Shown piece by piece: positions 151-47,042 of a stretch of DNA of 64,000 bases. A program made the position numbers and the translations under genes. Source of the stretch: Promethearchaeota archaeon. Its GTDB lineage: Archaea; Asgardarchaeota; Lokiarchaeia; Sigyniarchaeales; SOKP01. Every line of letters begins with the position of its first letter. Within the stretch, counting starts at the first letter, position 1. The DNA lies in assembly GCA_048939015.1 (NCBI GenBank), contig JBHLPW010000008.1, positions 18,497 through 82,496 on the forward strand. Direction: 5' to 3'. The notes beneath the pieces were generated by a model. It was given only the letters and a program-made list of their open reading frames with translations, was not told where the DNA came from and made no database searches.

Positions 151-312
151 ATGTTATTCTTATATTTTATTGCTTATATTATTCAATTACAATTTGAACA
201 GCTTAAAGCTGAAGATATAAAATCCATAAAAGTTGAAAAAGAATGGTTAAAAGAAATTTTATATGAGCTTAACAATTTAAGATATGTCCATATTTACTGT
301 CTTCGTAAATAA
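151..312 (+). CDS. Possible 53-aa small protein or gene remnant (MLFLYFIAYIIQLQFEQLKAEDIK...)
   Basis: Open frame ATG151-TAA312 read by hand; AGGAG upstream; no recognisable motif. Confidence 0.25.
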   Translation: MLFLYFIAYIIQLQFEQLKAEDIKSIKVEKEWLKEILYELNNLRYVHIYCLRK

Positions 313-334
313 ATTGAGAAAAAGTTTATTAAAT

Positions 335-556: not shown

Positions 557-621
557 TCTCCTCAGCTTTAATTATTTGAAAATTATTGGAATTTAATACT
601 TATAATATTCTTAATTCTATT

Positions 622-701
622 AATAATGTGATGTATCGGATATATAAAGGTTAGCATATAGAAGCAATTAATGTGGTGATAAAGTGTCACATCACATTAT
701 T
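622..701. promoter_or_regulatory. 13-bp inverted repeat pair flanking a TATA-like box upstream of the 335-556 gene
   Basis: AATAATGTGATGT (622-634) and its reverse complement ACATCACATTATT (689-701); TTTATATA on the minus strand near 641-648; related half-site AATGTGGTGA near 670. Confidence 0.45.
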
Positions 702-763
702 TTAAAAATAAAAACTATTAGAAAACATTAGAAAAACATCAAGGCAAGGTAAAATCGTTGTAT

Positions 764-1219
764 TTAATCATCTGCAAACCAATATCGTTTACCTACTTTT
801 ATCCAGTTTTCTAATCCCATCTCTTTTATGCTTTGAAAGTTTTTTAAATGAGAATCGCCATACAATTCTTTCTTAACTGCTGTTCTGAGAATTTCACATT
901 TTTCATAACTTTCGCATTCATAACATGCGAAGAATCCCTTTTCACGACAGCACTTTCTAACTTTGCAACTATGCTCATCATCTTCTTTTTCCCTGCAAAT
1001 CTTTTCACATTTTAGTTCCGTAATGAACTGGAGCATATCATGAAATTTATAATATTCTTTTAGTTTCTCAGTAAATATATTCTTCGCAGTATGTTCAAAT
1101 TTATATTTAGTAAGTTGTTGATTTAACTTAATGGCTGCATCAGCAATTTCACCTGAATAACCAGCACAATCTCCACAATAAAGCCCACAATATGCAAGTA
1201 ATTCTTTTTTATCTTTCAT
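764..1219 (-). CDS. DUF3795-type Cys-rich protein
   Basis: YCGLYCGDC...C...CKVRKCC....ACYEC....C pattern. Confidence 0.8.
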   Translation of the reverse strand: MKDKKELLAYCGLYCGDCAGYSGEIADAAIKLNQQLTKYKFEHTAKNIFTEKLKEYYKFHDMLQFITELKCEKICREKEDDEHSCKVRKCCREKGFFACYECESYEKCEILRTAVKKELYGDSHLKNFQSIKEMGLENWIKVGKRYWFADD

Positions 1220-42637: not shown

Positions 42638-43612
42638 TTATACTAAGTTTTTGTAATTTTTTGCTATACACCTAATATGATGATGGTTTGTGCCACAGCA
42701 TCCCCCAAGAATTTGCATTTTAAAAGTTAAGAATAATTTAATCATTTTTTTAGCCCACGTTTTTGGATTTTCAGATAACGCTTTATTTATTATGTTCAAC
42801 TCCTCAGGACTCTTCGTTGAACCATTTCCTTGCAATCCTTTAAGTCGTGTTTGAACTAATTCTGTATTATTAGGCTCAGTATTGATCGCACTTAGACAAG
42901 TAGTAGGATGTACACAATTAACCATATATAAAATTGGTTTTGGTGCAACTGAATTATCAATAGTCGAAATTGCCTTATAAAGAGATGTACCATCAAGTAT
43001 AGTTCCGTCTGGACGAATAACAAAACTTATTATATACTCACAGCCAGATTCTGCCATCGCTTTGGCTATACCGAGTGCCTCTGAAAAAGCAGGTAATGTG
43101 CTAGCTAATAGAAAGTCTACTCCAGCACTATTTAACTCTTTTACTTGGACCTGATGAAAGTGATATGCCTCTTCACTTGATAATGCTTCTTTAGGATTAT
43201 ACGCATCTCCTTTACATCCCATCAATCCTCCTATCAAGGATGTTGCACCTTTAAGGCTAAAGTGCCTTCTTATCTGATCTAAAAAATTGAAACAGTCAAC
43301 ATTCACATCCTTATCTTTGTACTCTGCTAATTCAATACGTTCTGGATTAGTACGCCAAGTGGGTGTTAGATTGAGAATTGGTATCTCATATTTATATGCT
43401 ATAGACATATATTGGCTATAAATTTTTTTGAGAATATTCCTGCCTTTAACATCATATACCATAGAGGCATTTTGAATGAAAGGATTTAATTTATATTTGA
43501 ATTCGTGTTTTATTCTTTCGATTACAGGTCCTTCAGCTAGTACTAATGGATTTTCTAGAATTATATCCTTTAATGACATCTTCGAATCAAAATCTCTAAA
43601 ATATTTCAACAT
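42638..43612 (-). CDS. Homocysteine S-methyltransferase family protein
   Basis: TPTWR, GDAY, GVDFL, VNCVHP, ILGGCCGT...HI; ATG43579 is an alternative start. Confidence 0.88.
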   Translation of the reverse strand: MLKYFRDFDSKMSLKDIILENPLVLAEGPVIERIKHEFKYKLNPFIQNASMVYDVKGRNILKKIYSQYMSIAYKYEIPILNLTPTWRTNPERIELAEYKDKDVNVDCFNFLDQIRRHFSLKGATSLIGGLMGCKGDAYNPKEALSSEEAYHFHQVQVKELNSAGVDFLLASTLPAFSEALGIAKAMAESGCEYIISFVIRPDGTILDGTSLYKAISTIDNSVAPKPILYMVNCVHPTTCLSAINTEPNNTELVQTRLKGLQGNGSTKSPEELNIINKALSENPKTWAKKMIKLFLTFKMQILGGCCGTNHHHIRCIAKNYKNLV

Positions 43613-43649: not shown

Positions 43650-46600
43650 TTAAGCCTCGGGTAATAGAATTACAAAAGAATCTCCTTCGACCCATATTTT
43701 TCCATTGTAATTATTTAATACTCGTTCGACTAAAAGAAATCCTAAAATTATTTCTTTAATTTTACTGTCCTTTTCTCTCTCTTTTTGGAATATCAATTCT
43801 TTTCCTATATTTAAAATTTCTTTCTGATAATCAATAATTTTTACCTTTACATAATTCATGTCATCAATTTGATTTCTAACGATAATAATTTTAATTTCAA
43901 TTGTTGGATTTTTATTATATCTAATGGAACTGATAAGGATATTCACAAAAACATCTATTAAAAATTTATCAGCTTTTACAAAAAGATCTTCAAATGGGTG
44001 TTCGACAGTTATTCTAATTGTTTTATTGGAATAGCTGTTTGTAATAAATTCTTTAACATCATCAATTACATCATATAAATTTACAGGCTCAATTATGACA
44101 TTTGTTTCACTAATCATAGTTAATTTTTGGATTATATATATTAGAAGTTGACCATTTATGCATTGATCTTTAATAGAATCCAATATTTTTCTTTTAGGAC
44201 TTAAGATAATTTGATGATCCTGCTCGTTATATTCATCTACCGATCCTTGAATGTTCTTAATTATAGAACTTATATCTTTTATGAATAATTCTTTATAAAA
44301 ATACTCTCTATCTAATTCTTGGTGCATATATTCTTCACTTATGCGTAAGTTTTCTTCAGCTGACATACGGAGCATCACATTTTTAAAAATCTCTGAAATT
44401 ATGGTTAAAATTTCTAAATTCTCTTCGATCCAATAATTATGATCTGATATATTATCAAAACAGACTATTGCTTCTAAAATCCCATTGATTTTTATTGAAA
44501 ATGTTAGAAAGTTGTTCACTTTGTGATTCGTAAGAAAGTACTTTAAATTAACAGCTTCTCTAGGAAGCTCATCTACGTTTTTTACATAAAAATAATCAAA
44601 TTCTTTAAATTTCTCTATTAACCATGGAAAATTATTAATGTCTATACTTTCGGGTAAATTTAATTGGGGAAGAATTAACTTGCGAGACCAGGTATAATTT
44701 CCTTTAGTGAAACTAAAATTAATATTAAATATGTAAAGATATGCTCGTGTTGCTTTAATGAATTCACCGAGTTCTTTAAGTGAATCAATTATAGCTTCTT
44801 CAAATTTATGTATACCAACAAATCTAGAAATAATTTCAGCAATGATTGCTTTTAGTCTAGAAATTTTCTTTAGTTCCTCCTCTAACTTCTTCTGCTCTGT
44901 GATATTCTGACAAATAATTTGATAAAATGTCTCATCACCAATATCGACTAAAGATGATTGCAGATTTACCCAAATTAAATCACCATTTTTCTTATAAAGC
45001 TTAATTTCTAATGGAGAGAAAATTTTATCTCGTTCTTGCCTTTTCAGTCTTTCGAGAACATCCATTAGATTATCTTTGTGTATTAATGAAAGATCTACAA
45101 ATTTCCTTCCCATTAATTCATCTCTTGTATATTCTAGTGTTTCCTCTAAAACAGGATTAAAATCAACTAAATATCCCGCAGAGTCAATCAAAAGAATAGA
45201 AAAGGGTGAATCTTCAAAAAGATGACGGTATTTTATTTCAGAATGCTTTAACTTGACTTCTGCTTCTATTCTCTCGCTAATATTCCTAATAATATATTGA
45301 ATTAAGATTTGTCCACCCATCTGTACTTCGTTAAAACTAATTTCCACAGGAATTAAATTACCAGAACTATCAATAACCTCTAATCTTAAGGGAAATGGAT
45401 AATTAACCTGATCGAATACTTCCTCATTAAAATCGATATCAATTATATCACTTAATATTTGGCTTGAATGCAATCCAATAAAATCTTCAAATGGCCGTTG
45501 AAATAAAATCTCAGCCTCCTTATTAGCATCCATTATTATTCCGGAGTTCTTATCAATAATTAAAATGGCATCTCGAGCGGCTTTAAATAATGTCTCATAA
45601 TGTAATTCAGCTATTTTAAGAGCTTCAATTGCAGGTCGATATAGATCAATTTGATTATTTATTGTATTATGAATAATTTTAAGGATATAATTTATTTGAT
45701 CTTTATTTAAATAGTTCTTTTTTATTTCATCAAGATACTGAAGTATAGTGGAACTAAATTGGTTGATTATATTTTTAGGAATCTTTTCATTATAATAAAT
45801 TATTAAAGATAATGGTAATATCCCACCTCTAATACTCTCATTTGAAACATAATCGAAATAGATTGCTGCATTTGAATTTAAGTGAGGGAATGGAAGAATT
45901 ACAAAAGTTGGCTTAAACTCATCTCCTCCAAAAATAAATTGCGATATTGAGAAACTTTTAACAGATATCAATTCTGGATCATCAAATGCATCTTTGGGAT
46001 AAACAGCTTCTACTTTAAGACCAAGATTTTCATCCCAATGACTAAAAATTATGCTAACTTCACTTCTGGGTGTATAATGATCAATTCTTTCTGCAATTTT
46101 TAGCGAAAGCCAATTAAAAGCCTCATCAATATTTATGTTTTTAATCCCGCTTGTCAGATATGATTTCATTGGTCTCCTTGTGAGTTTCTTAACACCCATA
46201 GCTTCATCTAATTCATTTATATCTGGTTGTTTTAAATCAATTTTATTGTAAAGAATAAGAAGGGGCAGTTCCCATAATTCTGGTATCCCTGCAATTTCAT
46301 GCAATAATTCACGCGCAAATGAAAATTTAATTCTATCAGTTACATCTAAAACAAAAATTAATCCATCTTGATTTTTAAGATAAGGCTTCCACAGTTGTTT
46401 TGCTTTATATTTTCCAGGAATATCATATGTTAACAACGATACATTATTAACTAAAATTCTAGAAATGTCCACATTTATTGTTGGAAATGTTGTTTTTGAT
46501 ACTGATTTCCTTCGCGTTTTAATTATTGTAGATTTTCCTGCCATCGTTAGACCGAAAATTAATATTTTTGCCTCCTTTTGTTCAAATATAATTTCTTGCT

Positions 46601-47042
46601 CAGGAAAAGATGTATGAAAGGTTTCGAGTAATATTCTTATCTCCTCGAGCTTTGCAGAATCTCCGTTATAAATTCTAGAGTTCACATAAAACCCTTTAAA
46701 TGCATCTTTGATTTTTTTGAACTCTTCGACAAATCCTTCTAAAAACTCTTCAACTAAAGCAGAATTAATTTTGGATTTACCATCAATAACTAATGAGATT
46801 AAAAGGCGCTCCTCTTTCGTTCTTGAATATTCACTTGGAATTTTGAAAATTAAATTAGCGGTTTTAAAAGTTCCAAATGTATGTTTAAAAAATCCTTTTT
46901 CATAGAGATCTATTAACAATGGTACTTGTTTAATATCATCTCTTTGAATAGTTTCAGGCATTTTTAAAAAAATATATGGAGGAAAATATGGATTCCGATG
47001 ACTTAAAACTAACATTCTCAAATTAAAACAACCTCTTTTCAC
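43650..47042 (-). CDS. Multidomain protein: longin/uDENN-like, Arf-like small GTPase, longin/uDENN-like, PAS, PAS, GAF, pseudo-histidine kinase
   Basis: G1 GLTMAGKS (aa164-171), G2 PT188, G3 DIPG, G4 NKID, G5 TSG; two PAS domains ending RNISER and QNITEQK; GAF with RAYLYIF/CFDN; degenerate H/N/G boxes; likely start TTG47021 after GAGG. Confidence 0.85.
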   Translation of the reverse strand: MKRGCFNLRMLVLSHRNPYFPPYIFLKMPETIQRDDIKQVPLLIDLYEKGFFKHTFGTFKTANLIFKIPSEYSRTKEERLLISLVIDGKSKINSALVEEFLEGFVEEFKKIKDAFKGFYVNSRIYNGDSAKLEEIRILLETFHTSFPEQEIIFEQKEAKILIFGLTMAGKSTIIKTRRKSVSKTTFPTINVDISRILVNNVSLLTYDIPGKYKAKQLWKPYLKNQDGLIFVLDVTDRIKFSFARELLHEIAGIPELWELPLLILYNKIDLKQPDINELDEAMGVKKLTRRPMKSYLTSGIKNINIDEAFNWLSLKIAERIDHYTPRSEVSIIFSHWDENLGLKVEAVYPKDAFDDPELISVKSFSISQFIFGGDEFKPTFVILPFPHLNSNAAIYFDYVSNESIRGGILPLSLIIYYNEKIPKNIINQFSSTILQYLDEIKKNYLNKDQINYILKIIHNTINNQIDLYRPAIEALKIAELHYETLFKAARDAILIIDKNSGIIMDANKEAEILFQRPFEDFIGLHSSQILSDIIDIDFNEEVFDQVNYPFPLRLEVIDSSGNLIPVEISFNEVQMGGQILIQYIIRNISERIEAEVKLKHSEIKYRHLFEDSPFSILLIDSAGYLVDFNPVLEETLEYTRDELMGRKFVDLSLIHKDNLMDVLERLKRQERDKIFSPLEIKLYKKNGDLIWVNLQSSLVDIGDETFYQIICQNITEQKKLEEELKKISRLKAIIAEIISRFVGIHKFEEAIIDSLKELGEFIKATRAYLYIFNINFSFTKGNYTWSRKLILPQLNLPESIDINNFPWLIEKFKEFDYFYVKNVDELPREAVNLKYFLTNHKVNNFLTFSIKINGILEAIVCFDNISDHNYWIEENLEILTIISEIFKNVMLRMSAEENLRISEEYMHQELDREYFYKELFIKDISSIIKNIQGSVDEYNEQDHQIILSPKRKILDSIKDQCINGQLLIYIIQKLTMISETNVIIEPVNLYDVIDDVKEFITNSYSNKTIRITVEHPFEDLFVKADKFLIDVFVNILISSIRYNKNPTIEIKIIIVRNQIDDMNYVKVKIIDYQKEILNIGKELIFQKEREKDSKIKEIILGFLLVERVLNNYNGKIWVEGDSFVILLPEA

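Follow-up and report, generated by a model that had tools for sequence, protein, structure and literature searches.

An Arf-like GTP-binding domain between two modelled longins, joined to PAS, GAF and predicted pseudo-histidine-kinase domains in one protein of a Promethearchaeota archaeon

In eukaryotes, longins of the folliculin, NPRL2 and C9orf72 kind pair up and regulate small GTPases. Prometheoarchaeum MK-D1 contains small GTPases of the longin-GTPase, GTPase-roadblock and longin-GTPase-roadblock types (Tran et al. 2024, PMC10933270), and AArfs with an N-terminal longin have been described in Asgard archaea (Zhu et al. 2025, PMC11914678). Which GTPases are the partners of the FLCN/SMCR8-type longins of Asgard archaea is a question posed by another study (PMC12290439). 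A precedent for signalling from a kinase to a GTPase without a response regulator is the actinobacterial conservon/AGPS, which consists of the kinase CvnA, the roadblock protein CvnB, CvnC, the GTPase CvnD and an optional GAF protein, CvnF (PMC4316618, PMC13343842). For the full longin-GTPase-longin-PAS-PAS-GAF-kinase fusion analysed here, no describing paper was found. The initial annotation, which was made from the sequence alone, did not recognise the architecture as a described one, and this is correct in part. Longin-GTPase-longin/roadblock fusions of Asgard archaea (PMC10933270, PMC11914678) and the kinase/roadblock/GTPase system of Actinomycetota (PMC4316618, PMC13343842) are published, and gene products at JGI already bear the name 'PAS domain S-box-containing protein/small GTP-binding protein'.

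The gene was analysed within a window of 64,000 nucleotides, by which we mean the whole stretch of DNA (Table 1). The open frame given in the initial annotation was confirmed, and only its start shifts, probably to the ATG at 47015 (M10), which leaves a protein of 1121 aa. This ATG is the probable start because homologues open with MxxLxLSH, the first longin strand. Residue numbers are nevertheless counted from the GTG at 47042 throughout. The domains follow in the order longin, Arf-like GTPase, longin, helix, PAS, PAS, GAF, DHp and degenerate HATPase_c. This order had been proposed from the letters and is borne out by Pfam, NCBIfam, AlphaFold2 models, fold searches and family profiles; the GTPase strings quoted with it were all found in the ORF translation at the residues named. 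No transmembrane segment was found in the protein (the Kyte-Doolittle maximum over 19 residues is 1.5), and it is predicted to be soluble and cytoplasmic.

Table 1. Features of the fusion gene, with positions in the window and residues counted from the GTG
Feature	Residues	Position	Strand	Basis or remark
Whole ORF		43650..47042	-	1130 codons from GTG at 47042; single, uninterrupted
N-terminal longin	10-152	46587..47015	-	AlphaFold2 model and fold searches
Arf-like GTP-binding domain	153-318	46089..46586	-	Pfam Arf; solved relatives; motifs
Second longin	319-450	45693..46088	-	AlphaFold2 model and fold searches
Long helix	451-481	45600..45692	-	AlphaFold2 model residues 132-164, one continuous helix
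PAS domain 1	482-600	45243..45599	-	Pfam and NCBIfam
PAS domain 2	601-725	44868..45242	-	Pfam PAS_9 614-716; TIGR00229 600-724
GAF-like domain	726-897	44352..44867	-	Orthologue Pfam match and family profile
DHp-like helical hairpin	898-1010	44013..44351	-	Alignment, motif table, family profile
Degenerate HATPase_c	1011-1130	43653..44012	-	Pfam, comparison with intact relatives
Stop codon		43650-43652	-	

By its sequence the G domain is Arf-like, in agreement with the initial annotation. Pfam Arf (PF00025) matched residues 153-314 with E=2.3e-34 and 118.8 bits against a cut-off of 22.3, and the best solved relatives were eukaryotic Arf1 (E=1.6e-24), followed by Arf6, Sar1, Arl1 and Arl8. Pfam Gtr1_RagA gave no match in the protein at E<=1, and when just the G domain was used as query, a word-based search brought up nothing but fragments of this protein family. 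The nucleotide-binding motifs are G1 GLTMAGKST, G2 PT188, G3 D207-I-P-G, G4 NKID and G5 TSG, and the corresponding patterns GxxxxGK[ST], PT, DxPG, NKxD and TS[GA] show little or no variation across 29 aligned relatives. At the position after G3, 17 of these relatives have Q, 9 have K, 2 have H and 1 has Y. In the fusion protein and its clade K211 takes the place of the switch-II Gln that follows DxxG, and with this replacement the domain may hydrolyse GTP poorly. A defining feature of Arf proteins is an N-terminal amphipathic helix that is released upon GTP binding (bioRxiv 10.1101/2024.02.28.582541); a free N-terminal helix of that type is absent here, where a 143-residue longin precedes the G domain.

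Both flanking domains are longins as modelled, with NPRL2 and folliculin as the nearest eukaryotic folds. The two longins first proposed on either side of the GTPase thus find support in the AlphaFold2 topology, which is beta-beta-alpha-beta-beta-beta-alpha-alpha in each (pLDDT 92.6 for the N-terminal and 84.5 for the second domain), and in matches to solved longins. For the N-terminal longin, Foldseek matched NPRL2 (E=3.9e-5), VIA gave Z scores of 12.8 for the Loki longin 8yqg_B and 12.0 for both FLCN and NPRL2, and Atlas gave TM 0.75 for Folliculin and 0.69 for eukaryotic NPR2. The second longin matched NPRL2 (3.8e-5), 8yqg (6.6e-5) and Lst4 (2.5e-4) in Foldseek, with VIA Z scores of 15.3 for 8yqg_B, 11.9 for Lst4, 11.1 for NPRL2, 10.9 for C9orf72 and 10.7 for FLCN; its score in the protein Atlas feature search, just 0.83, is a lead only. 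Roadblock domains reached a VIA Z of only about 8 against both flanking domains, over about 100 residues. At the level of sequence, neither Pfam NPR2 (PF06218) nor Folliculin (PF11704) matched the locus at E<=1 when the genome was searched, and PDB searches with a profile of the second longin and with one of 80 diverse N-terminal longins returned chance helical matches only. This lack of a sequence-level match to NPR2, Folliculin and solved longins is counted against the main reading given below.

The helix that joins the second longin to PAS1, in which L475 and E479 are invariant, is probably a signalling or dimerisation helix, judging by its model. Two PAS domains, spanning 482-600 and 604-722, are supported by PAS_9 (79.2 bits) and TIGR00229 (E=4e-32), with matches above the model cut-offs. 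PAS1 contains no Cys, no cofactor motif was recognised in the PAS domains, and a phmmer search of the PAS pair against the PDB gave no match at E<=1e-4. Pfam GAF had no match in the fusion protein at E<=1; it did match an orthologue (P0095, aligned region 743-886) with E=1.1e-8, and the family profile of residues 726-897 matched solved GAF domains with E values of 5e-4 to 1e-3, including 6bhn over its full length (E=1e-3).

The DHp-CA family profile matched HK853 with E=4.3e-19. At the position of the relatives' phospho-acceptor His the fusion protein has K922, and the acid that follows it (H-D in the relatives) is retained as D923. HMMER places the His of HK853 one helical turn downstream, at S926, so that neither register offers a His. 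Pfam HATPase_c matched residues 1027-1129 with 25.1 bits, slightly below its cut-off of 26.4, compared to 59-64 bits in relatives with canonical motifs (H-box HD[I/M]N, G1 DNGIGI and G2 G-x-G-L). N1034 of the N-box and D1071 are retained, and the ATP boxes read D-Y-Q-K-E (G1) and L-G-F-L-L (G2). The core is predicted to be catalytically dead and unable to autophosphorylate, because the acceptor His and the G1 ATP lid are missing. The pseudo-histidine kinase of the initial annotation therefore stands, with K922 for the His and D-Y-Q-K-E where the relatives have D-N-G-x-G. Within the clade the CA domain has a mean identity of 83%, on a par with the GTPase (85%) and PAS1 (87%), which suggests that even a dead kinase domain is still used.

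A search of Asgard genomes for the same domain order found it within one GTDB family, where 29 of the 68 sampled genomes carry the protein family; in the other GTDB families of the phylum no member was found, except for one weak match to longin and GTPase only. Given this distribution, there is no support for the initial suggestion that the protein may capture prokaryotic sensing in the course of being rewired onto GTPase signalling of eukaryote type. A single family member is present in the genome itself, which is 94.9% complete. Neighbouring genes are not conserved among six loci compared, and no receiver gene was found beside the fusion gene or five homologues. The clade of the fusion protein has lost the acceptor His, the G1 glycines, the switch-II Gln, and GP and RG of the first longin, and in the tree it falls within a clade whose G1 box is degenerate (SH-aLRT 100). 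The tree is effectively unrooted, with its midpoint on a long branch, and yields no order for the gain or loss of GAF. Many proteins carry the same N-terminal longin in fusion with an Arf-like or Rag-like G domain. According to an architecture census this longin also heads PAS or GAF proteins that have no kinase or GTPase, and this genome encodes a 552-aa longin-PAS-GAF-PAS protein whose gene adjoins an Arf-like GTPase gene.

Our main reading, to which we give a probability of about 0.45, is that the state of the sensor is coupled to the GTP-binding head and that the output consists of protein contacts, not phosphotransfer, with either direction of the signal possible. The protein would be a soluble, probably dimeric multi-domain switch, in which an Arf-like G domain, predicted still to bind guanine nucleotides, is clamped by two longins of the folliculin/NPRL2/C9orf72 kind, and a continuous helix links this head to the two PAS domains, GAF and the histidine-kinase core. 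Since the kinase core has neither acceptor His nor G1 lid and the G domain has no Gln, we infer action through allostery and protein contacts. The helix would couple the occupancy of PAS and GAF by small molecules, together with the dimer conformation of the pseudo-kinase, to the longin-GTPase head, and the output would be the nucleotide state of the head or its binding partners; dimerisation, coupling, the direction of the signal and a GAP- or GEF-like role of the longins are all inferred parts of this picture. The longin-headed PAS and GAF proteins without kinase or GTPase fit the longin as a regulated output. Several observations count against the main reading. Where relatives keep an intact kinase, the head stands in the place that sensor kinases usually give to their input, which favours the opposite flow. 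With Gln, GP and RG lost, the head may no longer cycle and could be a static nucleotide-binding module, and no residue-level model places a longin arginine at the nucleotide. The initial annotation had PAS and GAF controlling the GTPase in place of phosphotransfer; as family relatives keep an intact kinase and carry the head N-terminally like kinase inputs, the reverse direction is just as possible.

Taken as an explanation of its own, such a reverse flow is a tentative alternative that we consider rather doubtful. The longin-GTPase-longin head would then be the input, sensing nutrients or energy by way of GTP/GDP or a partner, and DHp-CA would be the output. In the relatives this output would be phosphotransfer, and in the present clade it would be binding of the pseudo-kinase to a receiver or another kinase, independent of phosphorylation, for which repurposed pseudo-kinases of the DivL type offer a parallel. 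An N-terminal head is in the normal place of kinase input domains, and the pseudo-CA is conserved as much as the GTPase. Relatives with an intact kinase core (for example P0107 and P0108, each of 830 aa, and P0096 and P0101, each of about 970 aa) belong to the same GTDB family and resemble the fusion protein with 42-50% identity in the parts that they have in common with it, the longin-GTPase-longin head, the helix and PAS. Unlike the fusion protein, they keep the H-box His, G1 DNGIGI, the switch-II Gln, GP and RG; they mostly have no GAF, and some have a single PAS. Proteins of longin, PAS and DHp-CA without any GTPase (about 12 of 145 representatives) also speak for the reverse flow. However, neither a receiver nor a partner kinase is conserved nearby, the single family member in this genome leaves no intact paralogue for pairing, and many longin-PAS proteins in the census have no kinase at all.

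It is unlikely, in our view, that the longins form a built-in GAP pair of the C9orf72-SMCR8, NPRL2-NPRL3 or FLCN-FNIP kind, with R405 or R74 acting as arginine finger on the fused Arf-like domain and the sensor setting how fast GTP is hydrolysed. The nearest eukaryotic folds (NPRL2, folliculin, Lst4/FNIP and C9orf72) are consistent with it, and GP (before strand 2) and RG are at least 90% conserved across 80 diverse N-terminal longins of the wider family. In the second longin, W336-D337-x3-G341 is spaced as W33-D34...G38 of C9orf72 (residue numbers from PMC12290439), and R405-G-G is kept in the beta4-beta5 loop; these residues are near-invariant in 100 relatives. Both R405, which is nearly invariant, and R74, which varies in close relatives, lie in beta4-beta5 loops of the models, and the RG motifs of the two longins pair weakly in hhalign. 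The aligned ranges of VIA give no residue-level pairing of R74 with Arg78 of NPRL2, and a complex prediction that combined both longins with the G domain and GTP scored 0.03, which speaks for nothing either way. Against a GAP pair, the first longin of the clade has PP (P21-P22 in the fusion protein) at the GP of the relatives; at their RG the fusion protein has R74-T75, the Arg being K, N or G in close relatives. GP is kept in the intact-kinase relatives, and the second longin of the fusion protein has G341-L342. An arginine-finger GAP normally works together with the switch-II Gln, which this G domain does not have, and sequence-level homology to eukaryotic GAP longins is absent. We regard as improbable the idea of a natural single-chain longin-pair GAP with an Arf/Rag-like client under direct control of a small-molecule sensor, an archaeal counterpart of C9orf72-SMCR8 or GATOR1/FLCN-FNIP.

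It is very improbable that the kinase is still active, using another His, such as H907, which is nearly invariant, and an ATP site that has no lid. N1034 and D1071 are invariant and would suit it, but H907 precedes K922, the H-box position, by 15 residues and is missing in the canonical-core relatives P0107 and P0108. In addition, the ATP site lacks the glycines of G1 and retains only a reduced G2 box.

A chimera made in assembly or a pseudogene in decay, for which nothing but the unusual domain combination speaks, has a negligible chance and was rejected, since the full domain order is kept down to 40% identity in more than 100 database clusters from independent assemblies (NCBI, ENA, JGI and Logan; contigs of up to 287 kb for the fusion type), many of the sampled genomes contain open frames of about 1125-1148 aa, and each domain shows 68-87% identity within the clade. 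The soundness of the assembly was judged from this conservation across assemblies, in place of read coverage, and the mis-assembly considered in the initial annotation is thereby ruled out.

The family answers the question posed in PMC12290439 by gene fusion, as its N-terminal longin is covalently tied to Arf-like or Rag-like G domains. Residues 10-480 would provide a compact soluble system for testing longin GAP action, with natural variants of the family for comparison (switch-II Gln or Lys; GP/RG kept or lost). In this lineage, GTPase-regulator parts of eukaryote type are wired into ordinary prokaryotic sensing by PAS, GAF and kinase domains. Since the family is confined to one lineage among the sampled genomes, it has little direct bearing on the ancestor of eukaryotes. 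If the single-chain GAP idea were true, Asgard archaea would already have joined the sensing of metabolites to a GTP switch under longin control, a coupling that eukaryotes have at the lysosome. The wider set of PAS and kinase proteins headed by a longin, with 469 representative clusters, would in that case form a class of archaeal signalling proteins that has not been described.

Compared to the Asgard multi-domain GTPases (PMC10933270, PMC11914678), the fusion protein is alike in combining an Arf/Rag-like G domain with regulators of longin fold, in its Lokiarchaeia-type host and in having no conserved operon partners. Roadblock domains are present there, whereas both flanks of the fusion protein model as longins, and the extension by PAS-PAS-GAF and a kinase core is found in neither study. 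The eukaryotic longin GAP complexes, C9orf72-SMCR8 for Arf and GATOR1 NPRL2-NPRL3 and FLCN-FNIP for Rag, share the fold, and like the Asgard FLCN/SMCR8-type longins (PMC12290439) they have a small GTPase as partner; the wider family adds to this likeness the conserved GP/RG of N-terminal longins and WD-x3-G of the second longin. The fusion protein differs from them in having longins and GTPase in one chain with no DENN part, in the degraded GP and RG of its clade, and in having no NPR2 or Folliculin sequence match. With the conservon/AGPS it shares a sensor of histidine-kinase type, a GAF or GAF-like component, a regulator of the roadblock/longin superfamily and a small GTPase of the Ras superfamily, as well as the GTPase as proposed output; the conservon has no response regulator, and none was found beside the fusion gene. 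The conservon is bacterial and made of separate genes in a four-gene operon, cvnA-D, with CvnC (DUF742), an active, membrane-bound, HAMP-containing kinase and an MglA-type GTPase, whereas the archaeal fusion is a single gene without conserved neighbours that carries an Arf-type G domain and longins. The conservon/AGPS is thus an analogue of the fusion protein, and not a relative.

The gene at 43650-47042 (-) forms a single open frame of 1130 codons when read from the GTG at 47042 (longest ORF), and residues are numbered in that frame, as in the initial annotation. Translation most likely begins at the ATG at 47015 (M10), giving a predicted protein of 1121 residues, because homologues open with MxxLxLSH and this segment makes up strand 1 of the N-terminal longin. 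The database gene call for an identical protein begins later, at M28, which would remove the first two strands of that longin, and three starts (GTG 47042, ATG 47015 and M28) are in use for this gene. No stretch anywhere in the protein was hydrophobic enough for a membrane helix, and the protein is predicted to be soluble.

The solved proteins closest by sequence to the G domain were eukaryotic Arf1 (E=1.6e-24), followed by Arf6, Sar1, Arl1 and Arl8, and no Pfam match to Gtr1/RagA was obtained in the window protein. Where an N-terminal amphipathic helix defines the Arf family, the window protein is not a full member. The GAF-like region had no Pfam match in the window protein itself; the aligned region of P0095, a 41%-identical orthologue, is a Pfam GAF domain (E=1.1e-8), and a family profile of the region matched solved GAF domains at E of 5e-4 to 1e-3, one of them over full length. 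A family profile of the last 250 residues matched the kinase core of HK853 at E=4.3e-19.

Domains of the window protein (residues) and genes discussed with it (nucleotides; L-numbers are other loci, in the same genome or around homologues)
Feature	Position	Strand	Evidence or description
Arf-family G domain	153-314		Pfam, E=2.3e-34, 118.8 bits
PAS domains, two	482-600 and 604-722		domain-model matches
GAF-like region	726-897		matches via orthologue P0095 and family profile
HATPase_c, weak	1027-1129		25.1 bits; cut-off 26.4
Homocysteine S-methyltransferase gene	window 42638-43612	-	same strand, starts 38 nt downstream of the window gene
Longin-PAS-GAF-PAS gene	L002:259-1917	-	own genome, contig C70; 552 aa, without GTPase or kinase
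Arf-like GTPase gene	L008:1423-2460	+	345 aa; end to end (convergent) with the 552-aa gene
Tandem family members, two	L015:4861-7734 and L015:8001-10916		GCA_014728645.1, WJLH01000182.1; same strand, 267 bp apart
Robl_LC7 gene	L011:5166-5555	-	129 aa; divergently upstream of orthologue P0028
Arf/Gtr1_RagA GTPase gene	L014:4683-5654	-	323 aa; divergently upstream of paralogue P0099

The domains flanking the GTPase were modelled separately, each from an alignment of 25-26 relatives, and both models are confident, with pLDDT of 92.6 for the first and 84.5 for the second. The order of elements in both models (beta-beta-alpha-beta-beta-beta-alpha-alpha) is that of a longin, and the top Foldseek match of each was NPRL2 of GATOR1 (E about 4e-5), followed by the longin domain of a Lokiarchaeial 'Roadblock-Longin' protein (8yqg), Lst4, Npr2 and FNIP2. 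A second structural aligner, independent of Foldseek, gave Z of 15.3 (8yqg), 11.9 (Lst4), 11.1 (NPRL2), 10.9 (C9orf72) and 10.7 (FLCN) for the second longin and of 12.8 (8yqg), 12.0 (FLCN) and 12.0 (NPRL2) for the first, while roadblock domains scored lower, with Z near 8 over about 100 residues. In the ESM Atlas, the eukaryotic shapes nearest the first longin were NPR2/NPRL2 (TM 0.69) and folliculin (TM 0.75). These topologies and matches bear out the initial description of the flanking domains as 'longin/uDENN-like'. On the basis of fold and short motifs only, the modelled domains belong to the longin subtype of eukaryotic Rag/Arf GAPs; the Pfam NPR2 and Folliculin models had no match at the window locus, and family profiles found no longin among the sequences of solved proteins. 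The second longin ends, in its model, in a 30-residue helix that continues straight into PAS1, and this predicted rigid helical link joins the longin-GTPase-longin head to PAS-PAS-GAF.

Motifs were compared across 100 relatives of the window protein. Family members come in several lengths: those of about 830 aa carry a single PAS, those of about 950-970 aa carry a pair, and those of about 1105-1125 aa have a GAF in addition to two PAS domains. A well-supported group (P0095, P0096, P0101, P0107, P0108 and others) retains all expected catalytic features: an H-box of LF-x-H-D-[I/M]-N, a DNGIGI G1 box, a G2 box, a HATPase_c scoring 59-64 bits, a DxPGQ switch II, and a first longin that has 'SHF..YGP' ahead of strand 2 and carries 'Y-[A/G]-R-G' in its beta4-beta5 loop. 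A second clade in the tree (SH-aLRT 100) has G1 degraded to D-Y-[K/Q]-x-x and, with one exception, N, S, T or Q in place of the His. The window clade sits inside it, again with SH-aLRT 100, and carries further changes: Lys replaces the switch-II Gln, PP stands in place of GP, and RG has become [R/K/N/G]-T; the window protein reads K922-D923, D1071-Y-Q-K-E, K211, P21-P22 and R74-T75 at these sites. Retained family-wide are the G1, G2, G3, G4 and G5 nucleotide-binding motifs of the G domain, the N-box Asn and D1071, and W-D-x3-G and R-G-G of the second longin. Judged by its sequence, the window protein is not an active histidine kinase. Nor is its dead kinase domain drifting: mean identity within the window clade is 83% for this domain, compared with 85% in the GTPase and 87% in PAS1.

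When 1.84 billion representatives were searched with a profile of the first longin, 469 clusters of proteins of 81 to 2317 residues matched at E<=1e-3, and the matched longin was nearly always N-terminal. Pfam domains in the best 75 of the 469 included PAS (39), Arf (24), HATPase_c (13) and Gtr1_RagA (12). Sorted with family-built HMMs, which overlook distant domains, and consisting in part of fragments, the best 145 of the 469 representatives (P0126-P0270) comprised 55 with a longin alone, 39 longin-GTPase proteins, about 13 longin-GTPase-longin proteins with or without PAS, 3 of that order (with or without PAS) with a kinase core, about 22 with a longin and PAS domains and no GTPase or kinase core, and about 12 longin-PAS(n)-kinase proteins without a GTPase. 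GP and RG, a motif pair common to eukaryotic GAP longins and one class of Asgard longins (PMC12290439), were at least 90% conserved among 80 of these N-terminal longins. The N-terminal longin marks a large, apparently Asgard-restricted class of longin-headed proteins. Members of this class include a protein containing 14 PAS domains and a longin-GTPase-longin-PAS6-kinase of 2317 aa.

No conserved neighbours were found around the window gene and the homologue loci compared, and no receiver gene was adjacent to any of them. The homocysteine S-methyltransferase gene probably lies beside the window gene by chance, because this pairing was not seen beside orthologues; neither the Robl_LC7 nor the Arf/Gtr1_RagA neighbour is conserved across the family. 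Elsewhere in the same genome, the N-terminal longin of the 552-aa protein shares 35% identity with that of the window protein, and the gene for this 552-aa protein and the 345-aa GTPase gene look like an unfused version of the longin-GTPase-sensor pairing. Further multi-domain small GTPases of this genome (L003, L006, L007, L009 and L010), namely X-Arf (332 aa), X-Gtr1/RagA (413 aa), a 608-aa Arf-like protein and two roadblock-like-Ras proteins (397 and 347 aa), fit the known expansion of such proteins in the lineage. In the tandem pair, the kinase motifs of P0096 are intact; P0110, a highly divergent protein, lacks the second-longin RGG and any recognisable HATPase_c, and the two are possibly an active/inactive pair.

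Like other DHp proteins, the window protein would be a dimer, in which the helix would couple the ligand state of PAS/GAF and the pseudo-kinase conformation to the longin-GTPase head, with output through protein contacts instead of phosphotransfer. That the sensors regulate the head is the reading we tentatively favour (probability roughly 0.45), because many relatives are longin and sensors only, and because the conservon/AGPS components of actinobacteria act on a small GTPase. Signals could also flow in reverse, from the head as input to the (pseudo)kinase as output, as the domain order and the intact-kinase relatives suggest; we consider this somewhat less likely. A built-in arginine-finger GAP formed by the longins is attractive for the Gln-bearing relatives but weaker for the window clade, where the switch-II Gln and the first-longin motifs are lost, and seems improbable. 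An alternative phospho-acceptor His is unlikely. In the HMMER alignment, the His of HK853 falls one helical turn further downstream than that of the family; the residue at that site in the window protein is Ser, so neither register places a His at the acceptor site. The gene is also unlikely to be an assembly chimera or pseudogene, and mis-assembly at the GTPase/PAS junction, a concern of the initial annotation, is ruled out by the same full-length order in more than 100 clusters from different assemblies.

Those clusters came from a search of 5.8 billion proteins, showed identities down to 40%, and originated from NCBI, ENA, JGI and Logan assemblies, with contigs reaching 287 kb for this type and source names of Promethearchaeota or Lokiarchaeia and other Asgard MAGs. 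When the longin-GTPase-longin head was sought at E<=1e-40 in a sample of 301 genomes of the phylum, 29 of the 68 further genomes from the GTDB family to which the window belongs had it, a second GTDB family gave a single weak match (longin-GTPase only), and the head was found in 0 of 232 genomes of the 28 other families. One family copy is present in the window's genome, which is 4.86 Mb in size and 94.9% complete.

Longin-GTPase and longin-GTPase-roadblock fusions have been described in Prometheoarchaeum MK-D1 (PMC10933270), and Asgard Arfs carrying N-terminal longins are also known (PMC11914678). The PAS/GAF/kinase extension is absent from both reports and from archaeal/Asgard two-component surveys (PMC5847659, PMC10343646), and a full-text literature search found no paper on a longin-GTPase with such an extension. 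Public annotations are generic, with JGI names joining 'PAS domain S-box' and 'small GTP-binding protein'. The conservon/AGPS system dispenses with a response regulator, its kinase, GAF protein and roadblock acting on a small GTPase (PMC4316618, PMC13343842); the window protein is not a conservon. Since longin-GTPase fusions are known and the PAS/GAF/kinase extension is what the surveyed literature leaves unreported, the full fusion is a variation on known parts rather than a new category.
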